Origin: a virus
Taxonomy: Duplodnaviria > Heunggongvirae > Uroviricota > Caudoviricetes
Length of the DNA stretch: 64,000 nucleotides
IMG/VR virus record: IMGVR_UViG_3300039155_000018
Location: 1-64,000 of that record
Direction: 5' to 3' (one strand)
A model generated the notes under the pieces. It was not told the origin of the DNA. It made no database searches and saw only the letters and a list, made by a program, of their open reading frames with translations. Below are positions 3,001 to 60,526 of this stretch, one piece after another. The stretch's first letter is position 1; the number at the start of each line of letters is the position of its first letter. Position numbers and translations under genes: made by a program.

Positions 3001-3669
3001 GTGGCTTTTGTTTATGGAGGAGAAAATGGAATGAACATGAATATCTTGATGATTGGGATGGGTTTTACCCTCACTGGATTGTCTTATCTACTTGCCACCG
3101 CGTTTGGGGTTCCTGTGGATTTGAATTGGTTGGAAATTATTGCTGTGGCAACTAGCTACTCTTGCACCATTCTGTTCATGCTACAGAAACGTGCTGCCTA
3201 TTTTTATGGCATTGTAAGCACTTTCTTCCTGTGCCTACTGTTCTTCACTCAAGGAATGATGGCACTATCTTTGTTTAATGGCATTTTGGTACTGTCTCTG
3301 GTTTACGGTTGGTTCCGGTGGGGGCCTGATGGTAAACCTCTCGCTGTGTCTTGGGTTAAAACTGAATGGAAAGCGTATGCCGGATACGTGCTCTTCTTTC
3401 TTGCTGTATGTGGACTATTCCGAATGATTGTAGGAGAGGGGTCAACACTCGATCTAACTTTAGCAGCAGGTAGTGCTACTGCTCAGCTAATGCTGGACAA
3501 CAAGCGTATTGAAAATTGGCTTGTATGGATTGTCATTAACGTGTTCTCGATTGGGTTTTTCTTGCAAGAAGGTTTGATTCTTCTGGCAATCCAGTTTATG
3601 ATGTTCCTTGTTAATGCAGTGGTGGCTCTCTACCGCTGGCACAAAGATTTGAAAAAGGAGGTTGTATGA
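3001..3669 (+). CDS. pnuC: polytopic membrane protein, PnuC-like nicotinamide riboside transporter candidate
   Basis: It is about 220 aa with several predicted TM helices and is W/N-rich near the C-terminus (NWLVWIVINVF). It is translationally coupled to the downstream NadR-like gene, the classic pnuC-nadR arrangement. Confidence 0.5.
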   Translation: MAFVYGGENGMNMNILMIGMGFTLTGLSYLLATAFGVPVDLNWLEIIAVATSYSCTILFMLQKRAAYFYGIVSTFFLCLLFFTQGMMALSLFNGILVLSLVYGWFRWGPDGKPLAVSWVKTEWKAYAGYVLFFLAVCGLFRMIVGEGSTLDLTLAAGSATAQLMLDNKRIENWLVWIVINVFSIGFFLQEGLILLAIQFMMFLVNAVVALYRWHKDLKKEVV

Positions 3670-4706
3670 GTGTAGGTATTGTTTTGGGAACCTTCCTACC
3701 TTTCCATAAAGGGCATGAGATGCTGATTAACTTCGCTAAGAACTACCCCGGCTGTGACAATTTGGTTGTCATCCTATCTTCTCGTTCGTTTGAGCCTATC
3801 ACTGGCCTTATGCGTTGGCTTGCTCTAAAATCCACATTTGAGGATGTATACATCTACCATCACGAAGACGACAATGCTCCTCAGAACCCTAAATCAGAAA
3901 ATGATGTGGAATTTTGGGACTACTGGAAGAAGGTAATTCGTCGTTCTATGTGGAGCTTTGAAGAGACTGATCCATGCTTTGTGTTTTCTTCGGAGTCTTA
4001 TGGTAGCAAGGTAGCTTCTTTGTTTGAAAACTGTCGTCATATTATGTTTGATTTCAATCGAGAGCATCAACAAGTCTCCGGCACTGTAATTCGAAACAAT
4101 CCGTTGGTGTTCCATGACAGCTTGAATATTCACATGGCGCGTTATTTGAAGAAACAGTTTGTTTTCTTTGGTGCAGAGAGTGTAGGTAAGACTACGTTCA
4201 CAAACGATGTGGCTGAATACTTCAATGCTAACATAACTGTGGAATATGCTCGGCCTTATTTGATGAGTCTTGAAGATAAAACTGTCACTGAAGAGAAGAT
4301 GGTTGATATCTTCAATGGACAGCATGCTCTTGAGGATATGGATCGTAACACTCTGTCTGGGAAGATTCTCAGTTTTATGGATACAGATATCCTCTCCACT
4401 TTCGGTTATGCTGAAATGATGGGGATGGATAGTTCTAATTTTGAGAATTTCAAGCTAAACACCGCAGATCGTGTTTATTTCGTACTCGGACAAGAGGAAG
4501 TATCTTTCGAAGAAGACATACTTCGTTACGGTGGAGATAGACGAGAGAGTAGTGATGAGTTCTGGCTTGATCTTCTGAAACGATACGGTGTGAAGGAAGA
4601 GAATATCCATTACGTGACAGGAGAATTCTTCCAGCGTCAACACTATGTGAAGAGTGTGGTACTAGAACATCTAGACAAACAATTTTATTTTGAGAGGGAA
4701 GTATGA
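3666..4706 (+). CDS. nadR: NadR-like bifunctional NMN adenylyltransferase / ribosylnicotinamide kinase
   Basis: The N-terminus has GTFLPFHKGH, the (H/T)xGH nucleotidyltransferase motif. A central FFGAESVGKTT Walker A fits the RNK domain. The 346-aa size fits NadR without the HTH domain. Confidence 0.65.
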   Translation: MSVGIVLGTFLPFHKGHEMLINFAKNYPGCDNLVVILSSRSFEPITGLMRWLALKSTFEDVYIYHHEDDNAPQNPKSENDVEFWDYWKKVIRRSMWSFEETDPCFVFSSESYGSKVASLFENCRHIMFDFNREHQQVSGTVIRNNPLVFHDSLNIHMARYLKKQFVFFGAESVGKTTFTNDVAEYFNANITVEYARPYLMSLEDKTVTEEKMVDIFNGQHALEDMDRNTLSGKILSFMDTDILSTFGYAEMMGMDSSNFENFKLNTADRVYFVLGQEEVSFEEDILRYGGDRRESSDEFWLDLLKRYGVKEENIHYVTGEFFQRQHYVKSVVLEHLDKQFYFEREV

Positions 4707-4939
4707 AAAGTGGTGAAGAATTGTTTGAGATGGATGAGGAGGAGATGGTTCAGGCGCTCAATAGTGCGATGCAGAAAGCTCTAAAAACTTACTTTGAGCA
4801 AAATGGTCCAATTGTAATTCCCGAAGAAGGGGCGACACTAGGCGAACTCTCAACCATCTTGAACCCTCTAGACAAGGTGTTACAAGATGTTCTAGAGCAA
4901 TCCCCAATCGTTAAATACATTAGCTCTAGTGTCCACTGA
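4703..4939 (+). CDS. hypothetical protein
   Basis: A 78-aa ORF. Its stop codon lies inside the first copy of the 13-bp tandem repeat. Confidence 0.4.
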   Translation: MKSGEELFEMDEEEMVQALNSAMQKALKTYFEQNGPIVIPEEGATLGELSTILNPLDKVLQDVLEQSPIVKYISSSVH

Positions 4940-9361: not shown

Positions 9362-9895
9362 ATGACAGAAGAGATGAAGTGCAAAAGTATTATTGAGAAG
9401 CATGAACGGGATATATCCAAATGGCAGCGCATGATTGAAAATGCCCGAGGTGCGATTGAATATCAGAAGAAAAAGATACTCAGACTGCAAGGATGTAATT
9501 ACTATGTTTATGTGGTATTTGTTGATGCTGAAGTGAAGTATGTTGGGAAAGGTAAGGGTGATAGATATAAACACCCCATCTCAGGCTCATCTTCTTGTGT
9601 GGAACTTAACAGGGACTTCTTCAACGGCAGGTGTATTGAGGTCAGATTTGCTGGGGAGAATTTGACTGAAGATAAAGCATTAAACATGGAACGCGATCTG
9701 CTGTATTCACTGGGATACAATGAAGTGGGTTTGTATAACAAAGATATACCTAGAACACTGAATAGGGACGGTATTTTCTGGGACTGCGGCGATGATGGGA
9801 TATACAAACTAACATCTCACGCTTGTTCGAATAGACCGTGTTGTGAAGTTGTAAAACCTATAGACAGGACACCAACGCCTGAATGCTATGACTGA
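9362..9895 (+). CDS. GIY-YIG homing endonuclease
   Basis: It carries YVYVVF followed 10 aa later by KYVGKGKGDRYKH, the GIY-(10-11)-YIG pattern with a conserved Arg/His. It is a free-standing gene behind a terminator. Confidence 0.6.
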   Translation: MTEEMKCKSIIEKHERDISKWQRMIENARGAIEYQKKKILRLQGCNYYVYVVFVDAEVKYVGKGKGDRYKHPISGSSSCVELNRDFFNGRCIEVRFAGENLTEDKALNMERDLLYSLGYNEVGLYNKDIPRTLNRDGIFWDCGDDGIYKLTSHACSNRPCCEVVKPIDRTPTPECYD

Positions 9896-10529
9896 ACAAT
9901 ACAAATATATCAAAGAATTCAGAGTGGACGACATTCCCAAATATGACAACCTGTTTATCAGAGATGGTGAACAGGTATTTGTCGTCAATAAACATACAGG
10001 AGAAATATCGTCAACTCTGTCCATTGCAGAATATGTCAAAACATGGAGAACAGAATGGGAGAATAACCCTACATTCAGGGCTTACTACCAAGACAAACTG
10101 ACATTTCCAACAGACCCAGACAAGGCAGAGACACTTGAAGAGCTAAGGCGATTATGTTCAGACAAGACAAGGCTCAGACGAGGGGATGAGAGATTTCTTC
10201 TAGACTTCATGCTGAGAGACTTACTGAGCACAACAGAGATGAAGCTATTCACCCACCTAACCAAGTGCGTAGAAGTGTGGAACTACGCTGTTGTGGACTA
10301 TTCCAATATCCCCTCAGTGCTAGACGTATCAGAACGCCAAGTACGCAATCTGTGGAGAGGCCTACAAGAGAAGGGGATGATAGCTATATTGAATACACAA
10401 TTCCATACTCCTCAAGGATGGAGGTACTTGGTGAAGGTACACCCTATGATCTTTTGGGAAGGAAGGTACTCTGCATGGGCTGCTAAGTGCAAAGCCGAGT
10501 ACGAATATGAAGACGCAATTACCCTCTGA
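9888..10529 (+). CDS. hypothetical protein
   Basis: A 213-aa ORF with an ATGA overlap to the endonuclease gene. Confidence 0.45.
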   Translation: MTEQYKYIKEFRVDDIPKYDNLFIRDGEQVFVVNKHTGEISSTLSIAEYVKTWRTEWENNPTFRAYYQDKLTFPTDPDKAETLEELRRLCSDKTRLRRGDERFLLDFMLRDLLSTTEMKLFTHLTKCVEVWNYAVVDYSNIPSVLDVSERQVRNLWRGLQEKGMIAILNTQFHTPQGWRYLVKVHPMIFWEGRYSAWAAKCKAEYEYEDAITL

Positions 10530-10704
10530 AATGCTCCAGCCATATTCGCGGAAATTCAATTTCCTCAAATTTCTCTCCAGCCTTAGTGCCGTAGGGGGCA
10601 AGTGATTACCATACAGTATATAAGAGTTATCTCAGAAGGAAATGATATAGAATAGGTAGTATAAAGCCTAATACTCCGTATTAGAGGTACATCCTAAGCA
10701 TTAT

Positions 10705-10741
10705 AAAGCCTCCTTGCTTATGTAGGGAGGCTTTCTTTTGT
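10705..10741 (+). terminator. rho-independent terminator closing the + strand block
   Basis: The stem AAAGCCTCC ... GGGAGGCTTT is followed by CTTTTG. Confidence 0.6.
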
Positions 10742-10746
10742 GTTTA

Positions 10747-11016
10747 AAATATCCTAGTGCGATGCACCAATAGGACATCCCTCCCCATCATTCTAAACCC
10801 CCTCTAAATATCCTCTCGTAGTATTCAGTGTCTTAGGAAATATCCTTATGGGAATATCTAGTGTCCTAGAAGGGTACGTTTCTGGGAACCAGATATCTAT
10901 CAGCTAACAGCTCTAACAGCTGCGACTATCCTTAAAATCTCGGATATCTATCTGAGGTGCTTAGCACTACCCACAAATGAGAACCACCCTCATCTGATGA
11001 TCTAGAAATATCTAAG
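10747..11016. repeat. array of about 8 (A)ATATC(C/T) motifs in an ORF-free region
   Basis: The motif occurs at approximately 10747, 10807, 10839, 10852, 10892, 10943 and 11007, with a related ACTATCC at 10924. Confidence 0.6.
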
Positions 11017-11663
11017 ACTTATTCCTATTCTCACCTTGTACGTATTCAGTACACTTCAAGGGTATTCCACCTTCAGTCATACCCTGAAGTCTCACATGTG
11101 ATAATTAAGGGTTATCTTATGTGAGAGGGTATATGACAGGGATAGTGACCTTTTGAGCGTTCCACTCGATTCAGTAGTACGTAATGGCACGAATGATCCT
11201 AGAGTGTGGTTTGAAGGGTAGTGATGGGATTAGGAGGGGTTATAGCTATCTGCATTGCAGATGAGAGGGGGGTGAGAGTGACACTAGAGTGGCATATTGG
11301 GATGCTAGAGCGCAGAATGCGCGAGCTTGGGACGGTTAGGCTTAACAACCAACTGTCGTTGTTGTACGCCTTCCCGATAGCCTAATGGGAGAAATAGACA
11401 TCCCTAAAGGCACGCCTTTAAACATACCCGCCTAAGCGTAGAACGCTTGCAGGAAGGCTTAGAGACGTTTAGAGGGTGTGGCTGTAGGGAGCTATAGACT
11501 AAGCGTTATACGCTTGAATGAGGGGCTTGTAGGAGGATAGTTAGAGTGCTACGAAAGGAGGGTAAAGAGAGGCTATAAGAGGAAGGGTGGATAGATGTTT
11601 GATTAGTTAAACACAAAGTAAATAATTATGGACAGAGGGACAGGGAGTATTTAGCAGACAAAG

Positions 11664-11692
11664 AAAAGCCCCCTAACAGGGGCTTTGTTTAG
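11664..11692. terminator. bidirectional rho-independent terminator
   Basis: The stem AAAGCCCC / GGGGCTTT has T-runs on both sides. It sits at the stop of the - strand gene 11689..12012. Confidence 0.6.
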
Positions 11693-19534: not shown

Positions 19535-19777
19535 TTATTTAGCTGTCAAGCAGTTTTTGCAAAGACAAGTAGAATCTTCTACAGGCTCTGGGAGCGGGAG
19601 GAAAGTAGCTGTTGAAGTTACCTCTCCCATGCACCAGCAAGCACTACCACTTTTCCCGTCAAGCATTGCGCAGTATGTACCTTTGTTGCATTCAGGGCAG
19701 GAGTGGGTTGTAGTGCGTTGCTGAATCTCCTTCAATAGCTGCATTCGAGCGTCACCAGTTGAGTTCACATGCACCAC
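19535..19777 (-). CDS. Cys-rich zinc-ribbon protein
   Basis: It carries CPECN...CWC...CLCKNC. It lies directly upstream of the RNR N-terminal ORF. Confidence 0.4.
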   Translation of the reverse strand: MVHVNSTGDARMQLLKEIQQRTTTHSCPECNKGTYCAMLDGKSGSACWCMGEVTSTATFLPLPEPVEDSTCLCKNCLTAK

Positions 19778-20993
19778 CTGAACAAGCTTGAGCGCCCATA
19801 CTATCGACTTCTACAAACTTCTTCTCTTGTAGCTCTACAGAAAAATCTACATTCTGCACAGTCCGTTCGATTGTCTTCCACTTGTGAAGGTTGAAGCAAT
19901 CCTTTAGGCAGTTTGTCATTTCAAGAACATCATTGTTAAAGTAATTGTTAGCGAACTTTTTAGCGCGTCGCACCCAATCACGTTTCAACAGGTCTTCCTT
20001 TGCTTCAGGATCAAGCTTCAAGCCCCAGCCGTTGACTGTATCACAAGCCACCCACAGATTGTTGTTAAAGGCGTGCAGGCCATCTACAATCAAACCAGAC
20101 GCAAACATGCTAGCTTCGCCGTATTTATCCATAATCTGTTGTGCCGTGAACACTTCAGTGAACGGGGCTTGTGGGTATGCCTTATCACCCATCGCACTTA
20201 GCAAAGAGATACCAGCAAACCACTTACGGTTGTCGTAGATGTATTGCTCCACCTCGTTCCAGTCATCAACTGTAATGGTATTGGATACATTGTGCCGAAG
20301 ATTCGGATCAACACACAGCTCCACGTTAGTGCCATGCTCCACCCAATACTGCTGAGCCAGCTTCACATACTCTAGTTGTTTAACCCCCATCAAATCCTTC
20401 TTATAGATGCTACCTTCCTTACTGACAATCGGGAAGCTAACAACTTTGTCGGTTCCGGTATTAGACCACACACTGTTTTCCACCATCTTAGGGTTCTTTT
20501 CTATCATAAGGTGGAGCACGTCGTCTTGGTCATTCATCTGCACGTTACGGAAGTACATCGGAGAATGTTCCCCATGAATACCAGATGCAGTTCCAAGCAG
20601 GGTTGATGCGTTGCCCGACGGCTTTACACAAGTTGTACGAGCTGCCTGATTAATACCAATCATCTTTGCAACAACCTTGTTCCACTCTTTAACTACTTCG
20701 GCGCCGTCAACCATATTCTGCTTATCGAACAACACTTCAGGGTTATTCATCCAGCCGGTAATGCTTACGCCAATTAGTGCTTCCCGTTCAATAATCTCCT
20801 TAGATGCAGCAGAAAGATATTTAAAGTCAGTGTATCCTGCTTGTAGAGTACCAATAATCGAAGCAGCTTTGCAATTCGCAAGAAACTCTTCTCGGCTGTT
20901 GCAAGCAGAGCCACTAATTTCGCACAGGTTACATGCTTGGAAACCACTTCGCCCATCTGCCGTTTTCGGCAGTTTGCCAATCTCTACACCCAT
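19752..20993 (-). CDS. ribonucleotide reductase catalytic subunit, C-terminal ORF (NrdA/NrdJ-like part b)
   Basis: It has ACNLCEI, the NxCxE active-site motif, and the C-terminal redox pair CSGGAC, which resembles the CxSGAC tail of NrdA. It has its own AGGAG RBS and ATG. Confidence 0.75.
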   Translation of the reverse strand: MGVEIGKLPKTADGRSGFQACNLCEISGSACNSREEFLANCKAASIIGTLQAGYTDFKYLSAASKEIIEREALIGVSITGWMNNPEVLFDKQNMVDGAEVVKEWNKVVAKMIGINQAARTTCVKPSGNASTLLGTASGIHGEHSPMYFRNVQMNDQDDVLHLMIEKNPKMVENSVWSNTGTDKVVSFPIVSKEGSIYKKDLMGVKQLEYVKLAQQYWVEHGTNVELCVDPNLRHNVSNTITVDDWNEVEQYIYDNRKWFAGISLLSAMGDKAYPQAPFTEVFTAQQIMDKYGEASMFASGLIVDGLHAFNNNLWVACDTVNGWGLKLDPEAKEDLLKRDWVRRAKKFANNYFNNDVLEMTNCLKDCFNLHKWKTIERTVQNVDFSVELQEKKFVEVDSMGAQACSGGACELNW

Positions 20994-21084: not shown

Positions 21085-21765
21085 TTAGGGGCTAACCGTA
21101 CGGAAACTCTCATGGATTTTATATTGGAAGCTAGGTAACACATGCGGAGCAACCATTTCCATAAACTTGTAAAAATCCTTCATTCGAAGGCGCAGATAGT
21201 AATACTGATTCTGCCTATTAATGTTGAACTCAAGGTCAAGCTTTTCTTTCAAAGCTTTCTTCAGGATAAACAAATCCCCATAAGAAAGTCGTTTCATATT
21301 CAAGGTAACATTGTAGCTCCCGTTAACCAACCCCCTTTTAGGGTCAGGTTTAGTTGTCACAAAAGAGCCGTCGCACATGTAGAGGATTGCCAACGCCTCT
21401 GCGTCCAGCATCTTCAAAGCGTGCGGGTCAATCCCTTTATACTTTTCCGTATAAATTCGCCCATGAAGCGTAGTCAAAAGCGGGTGACGCTTACTCTCCA
21501 GCCGCAATTGAGGCTTACGGTCACACCCGTCAACATTGTAATCCTTCCTTTCAGAAACCCTACACCCAGTGATTTGCTCAAGAACATTTTTGCAGAAGAG
21601 AATATAATCCTCGTTATCTCTTTTCATGTTCATGGCAAAGAAGGCATTAGTCCCCTCTGTACGGTTCGGTGGAAAGTACAACCCACCGTCACCCATAACA
21701 ATGTAGCTGAGCAGTTTTACAAGTTCTTTCTTATTCACAGTTTCCATAGTCTCTACACTTCCCAT
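21085..21765 (-). CDS. LAGLIDADG-family homing endonuclease inserted in the RNR gene
   Basis: A single LLSYIVMGDGGLYF LAGLIDADG-type motif lies near the N-terminus. The 226-aa gene sits between the two RNR ORFs on the same strand. Confidence 0.55.
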   Translation of the reverse strand: MGSVETMETVNKKELVKLLSYIVMGDGGLYFPPNRTEGTNAFFAMNMKRDNEDYILFCKNVLEQITGCRVSERKDYNVDGCDRKPQLRLESKRHPLLTTLHGRIYTEKYKGIDPHALKMLDAEALAILYMCDGSFVTTKPDPKRGLVNGSYNVTLNMKRLSYGDLFILKKALKEKLDLEFNINRQNQYYYLRLRMKDFYKFMEMVAPHVLPSFQYKIHESFRTVSP

Positions 21766-21868: not shown

Positions 21869-22870
21869 TTAGTGAACAGTCAACGGATTGTAGGTAAATT
21901 CAAGATTCTCAGTAAAGATAAAAGCAGGCTCCCCGTAGTCACGTACAGACTTCATAATGTTTGCCCACTCTTCACGAGTAATTTCGTCGCGCAATAGCAT
22001 TACACTATTGTTACTTCGGCCTCTGGAGGGGTTGGTGATAAACCAATCTCCAGTTTTAGCCTTCAGCATCTCGTCGTCATCTTTAGAGAAGAGACAAATT
22101 GTTGCGCTCCTGCGAACACCGCCCGAAAGAACAGCGTCTGCCATAAACATTACAAAGTCATAAGCTGTAATCGGCTTCATTGCTACGGACTCTTTACTCT
22201 CTGCAATCTGCGCATCCAACAACTGCTCACACTTCTGTAAAGCAATCCGCAGACCGTCTGGACCCGGAGCTTTAAATCCTCCGCTAATCTCTGCACCTTT
22301 GGGGCGAATCTTGCTGAAGTCGAAGTGAACCTTACAACCCTTGTACTCTGGGAATGTACCACCATCCTCAAAGTAGCTACTGAGCAGCACACCAAAAGAA
22401 TCAGCCCAGCCTTCAATACTGTCTGGGATGGTGTAGACCTTGCTCTTTTTATCGAAACGTTTCTGAATTTTAGGAAGCTTTGCTACGTGGTGCTTTTGCA
22501 CGCTGAAGCCGACTCCACATCCACACAACAGCAAATACATCGACTCCTGAAACGCTGCTGCTCGGTCAATGTGAGTTGACACGCAGTTGTAGAGCCGGGC
22601 GTTGTGCTTGAAGAGTTGTTCACCGCCAAACTGCAAAGCTCGTTGAGCGCCTAGAACACTTTTCTTCTTATAAGCATTTTCTGCAAACTGAATAAGTTCT
22701 CCTAGTTCTGTAGTCATTACATCTTTATATTTGATGCGGTGCATATTCATTACACGTTCTACAGATTCTTCCCAAGTCTCGTAACGACCCTCGCCATCCA
22801 GCCACCGGGAGTAACCCATGTAGAATTTGGATTGGGCCATCATTTCTTTACCAACACCGCTGTTAATCAA
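21869..22870 (-). CDS. ribonucleotide reductase catalytic subunit, N-terminal ORF (part a)
   Basis: It carries LSGGVRRSATICLF, resembling the GGVRGGAATLFYP region of class I/II RNR alpha, and an upstream LLCGCGVGFSV candidate for the first active-site Cys. It ends at an in-frame stop about 100 nt before the endonuclease gene. Confidence 0.65.
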   Translation of the reverse strand: MINSGVGKEMMAQSKFYMGYSRWLDGEGRYETWEESVERVMNMHRIKYKDVMTTELGELIQFAENAYKKKSVLGAQRALQFGGEQLFKHNARLYNCVSTHIDRAAAFQESMYLLLCGCGVGFSVQKHHVAKLPKIQKRFDKKSKVYTIPDSIEGWADSFGVLLSSYFEDGGTFPEYKGCKVHFDFSKIRPKGAEISGGFKAPGPDGLRIALQKCEQLLDAQIAESKESVAMKPITAYDFVMFMADAVLSGGVRRSATICLFSKDDDEMLKAKTGDWFITNPSRGRSNNSVMLLRDEITREEWANIMKSVRDYGEPAFIFTENLEFTYNPLTVH

Positions 22871-29125: not shown

Positions 29126-29674
29126 TCAGTCATTTTCTCTCCTCAATATCTCTAGAGCTTTCTCTCTACGTTGTGTAGCTTTACACGTAACCCCATGATC
29201 GTCAAGGAATTTCTTTAGGGTCTTGTCTTTTTCCATTTGGATTATTTCCTTGGTAAGCTTAGCGTCTTCAATAGAGATTCCTTGAGCCTCCGCATAGCTC
29301 TTATTTTTGTGGCAAGGCTTGCAGAGCAGGGCGTAGTCTTCCAAAGAGCACTCCCATAGCAAGGCTTGAATGAACGTCCCTATCTCTTCTGGGGTTCTGA
29401 GGCTGTTGTGGCCTGCAATATGGTCCACTTCCAAATCTTTCTGACTAAACCACGATTTACATTCTTCACACTGCCCCATCTTGACTTCAGGAAATCTCTT
29501 TTGCGAACGAGGGTTGGGGTTGTCTTTAAGCTGAAGTCGCGACTTCAGGAATTCCAGCTTAGGACCATACCTATTCCAAAGTCCCTTTCGTACACCCCCC
29601 CGTACATAACTAAGCCAAGCTGATTCAGTCTTCCACAAATGAGGCCACTGTTCCCAAGGAGTTTTCACTCCCAT
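29126..29674 (-). CDS. HNH endonuclease
   Basis: It carries CEECKSW ... DHIAGHN ... CKPCH, the canonical CxxC-DH-HN-CxxCH HNH core. Confidence 0.7.
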   Translation of the reverse strand: MGVKTPWEQWPHLWKTESAWLSYVRGGVRKGLWNRYGPKLEFLKSRLQLKDNPNPRSQKRFPEVKMGQCEECKSWFSQKDLEVDHIAGHNSLRTPEEIGTFIQALLWECSLEDYALLCKPCHKNKSYAEAQGISIEDAKLTKEIIQMEKDKTLKKFLDDHGVTCKATQRREKALEILRREND

Positions 29675-37167: not shown

Positions 37168-37746
37168 CTAGTTCCACACAACTTCATAAGCCTTAAGACT
37201 ATCGTAGGCTTGCTGAGAAACACTGTCCTTCCACTTATCAGCAAGCTTCGAAATGTGCTCTTCCTTTGCAACTTTGTACGCTTCAGCAGCGAATTGGACA
37301 CTATCGGTTGATAGTAAATGCTTACTCACTCTTCGACCATCCGTGTTCATTGAAAGCTGGGCGATATACTTACCGCTTTCAGCCTTAATGCTAACACTCG
37401 GAGGGAGTCCGTTCCTACCTCTGTTGTTTTGAAGGGCACAGTTTACTTCGTTCGGTAGAAAACAGCAGAACTCGGGACAGTAAATCCTATTGCCGGGTTT
37501 TATTAAATCCTTGTCAAGTTGGAATCCCTCAACATAGTTTTCCAAGAACCAACCAGCATAGTTTGAGAGGATTTGCCACTCGCTACATACCTCCACATCC
37601 TCATAGGTTGGCTTACTGGCGTGGTAAACCTCGCTATATGATCGGCGGTGAATACTGTGCCAAGTCGGGTATGCCGGGTGTTTACTATCGAGGTCGTTTA
37701 TGCCAACTCCAAATACCTTGTGGTTCTTCCACTTAACTAGTCCCAT
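37168..37746 (-). CDS. AP2-domain homing endonuclease-like protein
   Basis: The C-terminal half has SGKYIAQLSMN.GRRVSKHLLSTDSVQFAAEAYKVAKEEH, an AP2 DNA-binding fold. The N-terminal half is a nuclease-like region. It is inserted between the polymerase and the primase-helicase. Confidence 0.5.
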   Translation of the reverse strand: MGLVKWKNHKVFGVGINDLDSKHPAYPTWHSIHRRSYSEVYHASKPTYEDVEVCSEWQILSNYAGWFLENYVEGFQLDKDLIKPGNRIYCPEFCCFLPNEVNCALQNNRGRNGLPPSVSIKAESGKYIAQLSMNTDGRRVSKHLLSTDSVQFAAEAYKVAKEEHISKLADKWKDSVSQQAYDSLKAYEVVWN

Positions 37747-46170: not shown

Positions 46171-46438
46171 ATATCTTCCTCACTTCATTAGTCCACTCTC
46201 GTTGTTTTTCAATCAGAAGGTAGTAGTCGCCAACACAAGCTGTGTTTTGTAAATATCCCTTAGTCAAACTACCCAAAGAAACCCCCGCCCCAATTACAGT
46301 GCAGGGATGTTCCATCAATGTATCAGGGAGAAGGACAGGGATTTCCTTGGTTACTTCTTTTACAACTATCTGTGAGCAACTTGATAATGTTGTCAGGGAG
46401 AATACTATCAGCATCTTGAACAACGGGCTTCTGTTCAT
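46154..46438 (-). CDS. o-spanin (Rz1-like outer-membrane lipoprotein)
   Basis: The signal peptide has a lipobox (LSSC). The protein is short. Its gene begins inside the 3' end of the i-spanin gene in another frame. Confidence 0.55.
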   Translation of the reverse strand: MNRSPLFKMLIVFSLTTLSSCSQIVVKEVTKEIPVLLPDTLMEHPCTVIGAGVSLGSLTKGYLQNTACVGDYYLLIEKQREWTNEVRKIYGIGN

Positions 46439-59920: not shown

Positions 59921-60526
59921 ACCTCTTAGTGGCTTTCTTCCGATCTTGTTCAGCCTTTTGTTCTGCTTTAGCCTCTGCTTCAGCAATCTCTTTGAACGCA
60001 TCTCTTACTTCAAGATATTCAATGTATTCTGTAGCAACTTTGAGAGGATATTTATATCTAAGATTGTAGAGAGTTTCTATTGGATTTTCTGTACTGAAGA
60101 TGATTCGGTATACTCTCCAATCTCCAGAAAAGTTTTCTTCAATAGCTTTTACTTTCTCTTTGGAAGCTCTTAGTTTGTATTCCTTCTCTTTAGGCTCGCT
60201 TCCACTGGAAATTATTCCTCGGTGGAAGCGTCTTCCCCGTTTGGGCCTTCTTCACCCTCAAAGTTGTAGGCACAAATCTCTTGGAAGAGCTGGTTCATCT
60301 CTTGTAGCTTGCCACGGAAGTGGTTGTTGAGCTTCTTCTCATCAAAAGATGTACTACCGATACCACTACCCTTAGAAATGACATCAAACATCAGTGTAGA
60401 AGTAGGAAGGCGTTCTTGTTGCCAGCATTCCAAAACACGAGTTTGAATATCCCAGCCTTCCATTGCAGGAAACAGTTTTAGGGTGTAGGTAGTTGCGCCA
60501 ACAGTAGTAGTTTTAACGTCACTCAT
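59921..60526 (-). CDS. tail assembly chaperone with -1 programmed frameshift extension (gpG/gpGT-like)
   Basis: The 104-aa ORF is 60212..60526. The slippery heptamer C_CCA_AAC lies on the coding strand at 60239-60245. The -1 frame is then open for about 95 codons and ends 8 nt before the tape-measure ATG. Confidence 0.55.

Follow-up and report, generated by a model that had tools for sequence, protein, structure and literature searches.

What is the function of the sole large gap in an otherwise tightly packed phage genome? We analyzed a 64,000-nucleotide (nt) stretch of a tailed phage (Caudoviricetes; positions 1 to 64,000 of IMG/VR record IMGVR_UViG_3300039155_000018; hereafter the window), in which blocks of plus- and minus-strand genes converge on a region with no open reading frame (ORF) of 60 amino acids (aa) or more (10530-11688). 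The longest ORFs there encode 54 aa (11221-11385, plus strand) and 49 aa, each of the six frames contains 18-26 stop codons between 10742 and 11664, and no short ORF is kept in relatives; a preliminary description of this DNA, which had called the region ORF-free, non-coding and located at a convergent junction, is borne out on these points. It had also taken the region for a functional element and not a spacer, and position, size, architecture and motifs are indeed kept in at least 17 relatives. Sequence comparison indicates that the region is a real, conserved DNA control element, always found beside the gene for a DNA-binding protein of 213 aa with a C-terminal winged-helix domain (9888-10529, plus strand). 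Our leading interpretation, held tentatively and with less than even confidence, is that the region is an insulated cis-acting site of this protein, most likely a replication origin or replication-control region.

Relatives were gathered with the 213-aa protein as query and comprise metagenomic loci and loci from Logan, ENA and JGI (named L001 and so forth); a protein-based search of IMG/VR returned no relatives. The sole deposited relative is Pseudomonas phage vB_PsaM_M1 (M1; OP714164.2, 89 kb), whose polymerase A is 68% identical to that of the window, and all other deposited phages reach at most ∼30% identity for this protein. No DNA match to the region 10530-11688 was found among 50,697 phage records. 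The group consists of tailed phages of ∼85-90 kb, with M1 (host Pseudomonas sp. ZM01) as its only cultured member and many metagenomic genomes. In M1 the equivalent convergent junction holds a gap of 866 bp, without annotation and directly after the homolog of the 213-aa gene (protein UZS00858.1). An ORF-free gap of 0.75-0.92 kb is present in at least 17 related contigs, and in every one that extends far enough, always right downstream of the 213-aa gene; the metagenomic homologs of the protein are 45-65% identical. Conservation at the DNA level covers the 213-aa gene and the first 80-560 bp of the gap, which form the only such block in a mosaic neighborhood. The core of the gap and the winged-helix gene are, as judged from these alignments, inherited as one block.

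Family-wide, the 213-aa stop codon is followed by the same order of elements: a palindrome, a P-box, an A-box with a C-rich box, terminator T1, an A-box, a G-box, another A-box, a G-rich half and terminator T2. At the center lies a core composite element (10946-11012, plus strand), which comprises an extended G-box (ATCTATCTGAGGTGCTTAGCA), a 40-nt C-rich spacer, the -10-like hexamer GATGAT (10996-11001) and an A-box termed A3 (AAATATC, 11006-11012; at about 17070 in the M1 record). The G-box proper, GCTTAAC, occupies 10959-10965, and the extended form of the family, (TCTATCTGAGGT)GCTTAAC, corresponds to 10946-10965 in the window. The distance from G-box to A3, start to start, is exactly 47 nt in 14 loci and 48 nt in one (46-47 nt by eye in M1, L003, L013 and L014). 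The 40-nt spacer is otherwise variable in sequence and remains C-rich (family average C 0.33, G 0.14). The composite element occurs once per locus and only on the plus strand: the 414 kb of locus sequence gave 17 strict hits, and no further copy exists there or in the window. In an alignment of 15 loci the segment from G-box to A3 is free of gaps and RNAalifold returns zero consensus pairs, which points to recognition of the core as DNA, through its spacing and sequence. All 15 cores carry a -10-like hexamer (nAnnAT), with an invariant closing AT, 4 nt before AAATATC. We also searched for homologs of the composite element outside the family, but the 7 IMG/VR and 70 GTDB hits all lack the partner protein and are by estimate about the number expected by chance. 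The G-box (TGCTTAACA at 10959-10965 and GGCTTAACAAC at 11338-11348) appears to resemble the bacterial rrn boxA antitermination sequence TGCTCTTTAACAA minus 3 nt.

Such a degree of order bears on the simplest explanation of the gap, namely that it is a decayed remnant or a neutral spacer with no function beyond its two terminators. Much of the sequence does diverge fast and motif copy number varies, as this explanation would have it, but position, size and ordered, strand-specific blocks with exact spacing are kept down to 45% protein identity, the region resembles no protein of the relatives, and no second gap of this kind exists in the genome. We strongly disfavor the neutral-spacer reading and consider it very improbable. 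A decayed gene was rejected as well: neither protein similarity nor a conserved short ORF is seen in relatives, and the extra ORFs located there encode HNH/NUMOD4 homing endonucleases that have no similarity to the region in the window.

The A-boxes form an array in the window (10747-11013, plus strand), with seven copies of (A)AATATC(C/T) or GATATCT. The array had been described as about eight copies of ATATC(C/T); the cluster is real and restricted to the plus strand, but it has seven copies (at 10749, 10808, 10840, 10854, 10893, 10944 and 11008), and relatives have only one to five. It is the densest cluster of this motif in the 64 kb, ∼30-fold above the window background of 0.89 per kb (Poisson estimate ∼6e-9 for one 265-bp interval). 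Because relatives carry so few copies, the seven-copy array is an expansion in the lineage of the window. Two A-boxes are conserved in position, one directly after T1 (A2, 10747) and A3 (11006), and AAAATATC, which is never seen on the opposite strand, is shared by 11 of 13 clades. With a length of just 7-8 bp, the A-box has no wider consensus and recurs at unphased spacings of 14-64 bp. AAATATC was rejected as a genome-wide promoter element, with only 15 copies on both strands of the 64 kb, four of them here and the rest mostly intragenic. Isolated AAATATCC copies are seen in two other gaps of the window (46251-46257, plus strand; 60047-60053, minus-strand motif), with no G-box 47 nt upstream.

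What could read such a site? The AlphaFold2 model of the 213-aa protein (predicted local distance difference test score 76) reveals an N-terminal β/α domain and a C-terminal winged helix. Fold matches in the PDB are generic winged-helix proteins, including DnaD-N, a staphylococcal plasmid Rep and T4 MotA, and the named matches in a viral structure library are mostly replication initiators (Replication initiator A, RepL twice, a lambda O-like protein and a replicon initiation protein), the others being labeled simply 'HTH'. Pfam returns a weak HTH_36 hit, and PHROGs and NCBIfam return nothing for this protein; neither the 213-aa family nor the DNA element is annotated in the databases searched. 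No other recognizable initiator was found among the genes of the window. Iteron origins are expected to have a linked initiator gene, and the adjacent, co-conserved winged-helix gene is consistent with, though not specific to, such an arrangement.

The core is framed by two terminators. T1 (10705-10744, with the stem at 10705-10734 followed by a T-tract) closes the plus-strand operon or a short unit and is strong on the plus strand, as had been proposed, with 13 pairs and a free energy of -21.1 kcal/mol (z = -6.1). Per-sequence folds place T1 at the same position in relatives, where at least nine different stem sequences precede the T-tract; the stems covary and the large loop TGCTT..AGG is conserved. 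T2 (11664-11692, hairpin 11665-11686) ends the minus-strand operon, and in the window it has T-tracts on both sides. Its earlier designation as bidirectional fits this genome, in which both strands score, but not the relatives, in which only the minus strand is called (as in M1 and L017); T2 covaries in clade B. The picture of a region sealed between two terminators is in the same way accurate for the window and partly genome-specific. Both elements consist of a G+C-rich hairpin and a T-tract at the end of a transcription unit, as intrinsic terminators do, and they shield the core from both converging operons. A scan for RNA genes gave a single Rfam hit in the window region, which is sub-threshold and terminator-like, and no transfer RNA or transfer-messenger RNA in the region.

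Upstream of T1, an inverted repeat directly follows the 213-aa stop codon (10530-10584, plus strand) and contains the palindrome GGAAATTCAATTTCC (10553-10567); M1, L003, L012 and clade B (GGGATTTTGAAAATCCC) likewise have a palindrome of this type immediately behind the stop codon. The P-box of the window (10613-10626, plus strand) is a degenerate copy: relatives carry TAGACATATATAATATAAGAG, which is promoter-like with a perfect TATAAT, and the window retains only TATATAAGAG. Between P-box and T1 the family has an A-box (AAATATCC) and a C-rich box. The P-box may act as a promoter-like element for a short unit ending at T1, or for an inserted HNH gene.

To the right of the core the base composition is inverted. 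The preliminary description regarded the top strand here as purine-rich; this is true of ∼11100-11660 only, and 10700-11100 is instead C/pyrimidine-rich (skew -0.1 to -0.33). An imperfect palindrome or hairpin at the switch (11081-11126, -20 kcal/mol, z = -3.3) is present in the window. The G/purine-rich, C-depleted tract (11130-11660, plus strand; G 0.32, C 0.14) evolves fast and can barely be aligned even between relatives with a flanking gene 80-90% identical. Its GC skew is +0.4 to +0.5 in the window, family averages over ∼500 nt range from +0.13 to +0.39, and its C fraction lies between 0.11 and 0.18 in 13 of 13 loci tested. The consensus fold amounts to only -8.7 kcal/mol over 739 columns, in which T2 alone covaries. 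What the tract keeps is its composition; sequence and structure vary. Within it lies the second G-box (GGCTTAACAAC, 11338-11348), which is kept in 7-8 clades. The twin hairpins (11434-11448 and 11501-11515) and the palindrome (11405-11420) noted earlier are present, and perfect 6-bp hairpins number 6, compared with 1.6 ± 1.5 in shuffles (∼4-fold). Such hairpin pairs share a 6-bp stem within a genome and differ in their 3-nt loops: the stem is AAGCGT..ACGCTT in the window and CTGTAC..GTACAG in M1 (L001 7085-7099 and 7336-7350), and the CTGTAC stem recurs in other clades (L005 5851, L013 4087). An AT-rich patch before T2 (11599-11626, plus strand) reads as a sigma-70-like TTGATT-16-AATAAT and is a candidate promoter or easily melted segment; similar AT-rich, promoter-like hits lie 40-100 nt before T2 in L001, L014, L017, L018 and L024. 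The count of promoter-like hits does not exceed shuffle expectation.

In the mechanism that we propose for an origin, the 213-aa protein would bind the A- and G-boxes, and the core would serve as an activator-dependent or -10-only promoter firing rightward. The resulting C-poor, G-rich and Rho-resistant transcript would form a stable RNA:DNA hybrid on the C-rich template. This hybrid might open the duplex or prime synthesis for the primase-helicase and polymerase A of the phage, in the manner of origins that are activated by transcription or use an R-loop. A constraint on composition alone, as seen for the tract, fits a hybrid-forming or Rho-resistant transcript. A narrower formulation has the core as an activator-dependent promoter controlled by the winged-helix protein, producing a ∼0.6-kb C-depleted, essentially unstructured and fast-evolving long non-coding RNA (lncRNA) that would function by composition, perhaps by supplying the R-loop primer that a T7-like replisome requires or by acting as a decoy resistant to Rho; we regard it as rather unlikely.

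The transcript could also be an end in itself. The core would then be the regulated promoter of a ∼0.55-0.7 kb purine-rich, unstructured, trans-acting RNA, such as a decoy or sponge for C/U-rich RNA or for an RNA-binding protein, with the winged-helix protein as its transcription factor, and the unit from P-box to T1 may make a small RNA of ∼85-110 nt. The hexamer with the invariant AT before the A-box, the purine loading and C depletion expected of an untranslated, Rho-resistant RNA, and a bona fide terminator T1 behind a P-box with a perfect TATAAT in relatives are in line with this view, as is the short unit of clade B, whose C-rich CCCAAUUCCCCUC stretch is complementary to the G-rich half. 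In the window (z -2.4) and M1 (z -2.9), the two halves of the gap pair with each other mildly more than under a composition-preserving null, but such pairing is absent in L015 and L005. No Rfam 15 family matches at gathering score in 11 relatives, and in consensus folds of the relatives the core and the G-rich half alike show essentially no conserved structure and no covariation. Even close relatives differ greatly in the sequence of the tract, an uncommon trait for an RNA that acts in trans; relatives have no plus-strand terminator at the 3' end, and the P-box of the window is degenerate. GGA and Shine-Dalgarno-like motifs are not enriched either. We consider a trans-acting RNA locus of this kind doubtful, and the independently transcribed structured RNA put forward in the preliminary description is disfavored on the same folding and Rfam results. 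A giant hairpin of the two halves was rejected, its signal being mostly compositional and without family support.

The GGAGG/AGGGAG strings once highlighted as a special feature do not stand out, with GGA, GGAG and GAGG at dinucleotide expectation in the window (z -0.5 to +0.5). A CsrA/RsmA sponge or Shine-Dalgarno decoy was rejected accordingly, with 16 GGA in 557 nt (z = -0.5) and z between -1.5 and +2.1 in 13 loci. Sponge RNAs of the Csr/Rsm type carry GGA about once per 15-17 nt, displayed in hairpin loops. The region resembles CsrB and RsmY/Z as a purine-rich, untranslated stretch with many GGA triplets followed by a terminator, but has one GGA per 35 nt, at composition expectation, and neither conserved GGA-loop hairpins nor an Rfam hit.

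Base composition also supports an explanation that dispenses with a transcript from the core. When viewed along the incoming transcripts, plus-strand RNA beyond T1 has C 0.21-0.33 and G 0.14-0.18 for ∼250 nt, and minus-strand RNA beyond T2 has C 0.23-0.28 and G 0.12-0.18 for ∼500 nt. The compositional signature of a Rho utilization (rut) site, at least 70-80 nt of untranslated RNA rich in C and poor in G, is found from both incoming directions. The region could be an insulator between converging operons in which each terminator is backed by a Rho-loading tract, preventing collisions and antisense RNA, with the core as a separate small regulatory site. The symmetry of composition with respect to incoming transcription, the conservation of composition alone, as expected for rut sites, the strand preference of the terminators (T1 acts only on the plus strand and T2, in relatives, mainly on the minus strand) and the convergent junction itself all suit an insulator. 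It leaves the spaced, strand-specific core of G-box and A-box, the co-inheritance of the winged-helix gene and the second G-box unexplained, however, and does not account for a size held at 0.75-0.92 kb throughout the family. Convergent operons in compact phage genomes, moreover, normally need only a bidirectional terminator. We judge an insulator to be a minor possibility. Compared with rut regions that back intrinsic terminators, the gap is alike in being untranslated, C-rich and G-poor in the incoming direction on both sides and constrained in composition only, and unlike them in its unusual and conserved length and in embedding a spaced conserved core with a linked protein gene.

Several observations weigh against an origin that fires through a rightward transcript. 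A sigma-70 weight-matrix scan of all loci found no promoter at one fixed place across them. The core is rich in promoter candidates on both strands: strong leftward TTGACA-17-TAGnGT sites start at the G-box in 6 loci, leftward sites use the complement of an A-box as -10 in ∼10 loci, and rightward sites occur in several, so that a number of loci have strong leftward promoters inside the core. Since T2 lacks plus-strand terminator function in relatives, a rightward RNA need not form as a discrete species. Divergent junctions are the more frequent site of origins, and at a convergent one (the layout of M1) forks would run head-on into both operons. Iteron origins usually have several direct repeats of 17-22 bp, often helically phased, and one to five unphased A-boxes of 7-8 bp in relatives do not make a classical iteron array. 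No conserved AT-rich unwinding element was found by the core (family-average A+T 0.60-0.64, close to the flanks), and the sole AT-rich patch (11599-11640) lies ∼600 bp from the A-box array. The winged-helix fold, finally, is generic, and MarR, LexA and CodY score equally well. An origin with iterons is nevertheless the most plausible of the three roles first suggested, given the linked winged-helix gene, although the array is not conserved and no clear AT-rich unwinding element is kept. As a separate observation, high-scoring leftward sigma-70-like promoters (TTGACA-17-TAGnGT, predicted to start at the G-box) occupy the spacer between G-box and A-box in L015 (∼4895-4925), with equivalents in L016, L024, L018, L023 and L003, and are absent in the window and M1; their transcripts would overlap the 3' end of the 213-aa gene in antisense.

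How does the locus compare with known origins? Phage origins with short repeats bound by winged-helix initiators include those of lambda (O/ori-lambda), SPP1 (G38P/oriL-oriR) and P4 (alpha/ori-crr), in which the initiator is encoded next to or over the origin; the P4 repeats are 8 bp long, near the length of the A-box. Our locus shares with these a winged-helix gene linked to a non-coding site with short repeats in the same orientation, in a phage that brings its own helicase-primase and polymerase. It differs in that neither protein nor site has sequence homology to them, the repeats are 1-7 in number, unphased and 7-8 bp long, no conserved AT-rich unwinding element was found, and the site follows the gene instead of being contained in it and is located at a convergent junction; in our case binding and origin activity are both predictions. 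The second class of comparison comprises RNA-dependent origins, for which the RNA-based prophage origins of cluster A mycobacteriophages document a phage example that depends on a non-coding RNA (PMC7157519). Together with ColE1 RNA II and T4 oriF/oriG, these resemble our region in having an ORF-free stretch of ∼0.4-0.6 kb with a promoter and an untranslated transcript needed in cis, both of them putative in our case. The G-rich non-template strand of ∼500 nt would favor a stable RNA:DNA hybrid. ColE1 differs in that RNA II is highly structured, in contrast to the lack of conserved RNA structure here, and in having no dedicated DNA-binding protein linked to it. We use the known initiator-origin and RNA-primed origin families as analogies and do not assign our locus to them.

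The gap is also a target for mobile genes. Extra genes are present in the homologous region at five loci (L004 3069-3635, L005 4717-5247, L006 856-1386, L010 5259-5786 and L014 5036-6205); all are free-standing NUMOD4/HNH homing endonucleases, each with its own Shine-Dalgarno sequence, and the window has none at this place. They are inserted at two points, between P-box and T1 and ∼390 bp into the gap, and in L004, L005 and L006 they start right after the P-box. Intact genes in homologous regions had been named as the observation that would speak against the preliminary description. They do occur, at the five loci, but because they are mobile HNH genes and the non-coding architecture resumes right after them, the finding is not refuted by their presence. 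Repeated insertion of homing endonucleases at two points is what is expected of a conserved, indispensable target.

Contigs tend to end here, too. Of ∼17 contigs of at least 10 kb, five stop inside the 0.85-kb region (L003, L012, L013 at 84 kb, L021 at 60 kb and L023), compared with none in the equivalent upstream stretch. L013, L021 and L022, which are 88-94% identical, stop within ∼110 bp of one another (offsets 0, -44 and -110), near the CTGTACtttGTACAG hairpin at the switch from C-rich to G-rich DNA. Is the region then a genome terminus or packaging site, either as the physical ends of the genome, with a short direct terminal repeat (DTR) collapsed in circularized assemblies, or as a pac site in which the motif array would serve terminase recognition? 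Felix O1-like myoviruses package with short DTRs of ∼0.6 kb (PMC6454146, PMC11984208). Felix O1-like phages of the same genome size have a ∼1-kb ORF-free stretch at bp 1, and the likeness extends, also with T7-like short DTRs, to an ORF-free block of ∼0.6-1 kb, same-strand arrays of short repeats and assemblies that break there. The ends, however, do not fall on one base, 12 contigs read straight through the region, and the breaks fall where conserved DNA gives way to mosaic or hypervariable DNA, two of the contigs coming from one sample with co-occurring strains. The M1 terminase gene is 26 kb away and the M1 record has no terminal repeat at its ends. By our own reasoning, moreover, a collapsed DTR yields a clean cycle and would not break contigs. 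The Felix O1-like terminus was rejected as a homolog: the two share no motifs, the flanking genes converge here and are co-directional in Fifi106, and the phages are remote relatives. Hypervariability, co-occurring strains or true ends could each cause the contig ends. The earlier suggestion of a pac/packaging site has indirect and ambiguous backing from a hot spot of contig ends, and is weakened by their imprecision; we think it quite improbable that the region is a terminus.

Homing endonucleases are not confined to the gap. Elsewhere in the window, further HNH genes lie at 37168-37746 and 29126-29674 (minus strand), one of them between the polymerase A and primase-helicase genes; M1 likewise has an HNH gene beside its polymerase. 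The genome is heavily colonized by homing endonucleases. Ribonucleotide reductase appears split into two ORFs, an N-terminal and a C-terminal part (PHROG 367), with a LAGLIDADG ORF between them (19752-20993, 21085-21765 and 21869-22870, minus strand), which suggests an interruption of the intron or intein type. Proteins encoded in the window include, besides DNA polymerase A and a Toprim/DnaB-type primase-helicase, baseplate J, a tape-measure protein, a DUF3383 sheath-like protein, an ATP-dependent ligase, an exonuclease and proteins of nicotinamide adenine dinucleotide (NAD) salvage. A PnuC-like nicotinamide mononucleotide (NMN) transporter gene (3001-3669, plus strand) adjoins one for a NadR-like NMN adenylyltransferase (3666-4706, plus strand), forming a phage NAD+ salvage module. 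M1 and the window do not share one module order, and their polymerase genes lie on opposite relative strands. M1 is labeled as a member of the Ounavirinae; the polymerases A of M1 and the window are merely ∼28-32% identical to the other top-listed phage polymerases, and judging from these sequences the label looks doubtful.

Taken together, our work defines a candidate cis/trans pair in a phage group for which no origin, initiator or regulatory RNA is known: a composite DNA element of 67 bp, in which the 47-nt rule is exact, and a winged-helix family of 213 aa that lacks annotation. It is familiar in phages that a non-coding region for control or replication initiation lies beside a gene for a DNA-binding protein; the exact-spacing rule and the tract conserved in composition only are unusual. 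Assembly breaks and insertions of homing endonucleases concentrate at this locus, a practical concern when phage genomes are reconstructed from metagenomes. Should an R-loop, or an RNA defined by its composition, be formed from the tract, the mechanism would be unusual among virulent myoviruses, and if the reading as a composition-dependent lncRNA or origin is true, the tract would represent a class of phage lncRNA or origin without a described family. If the pair proves to be an origin with its initiator, it would open the replication of this lineage to study and provide a module that can be used in engineering.

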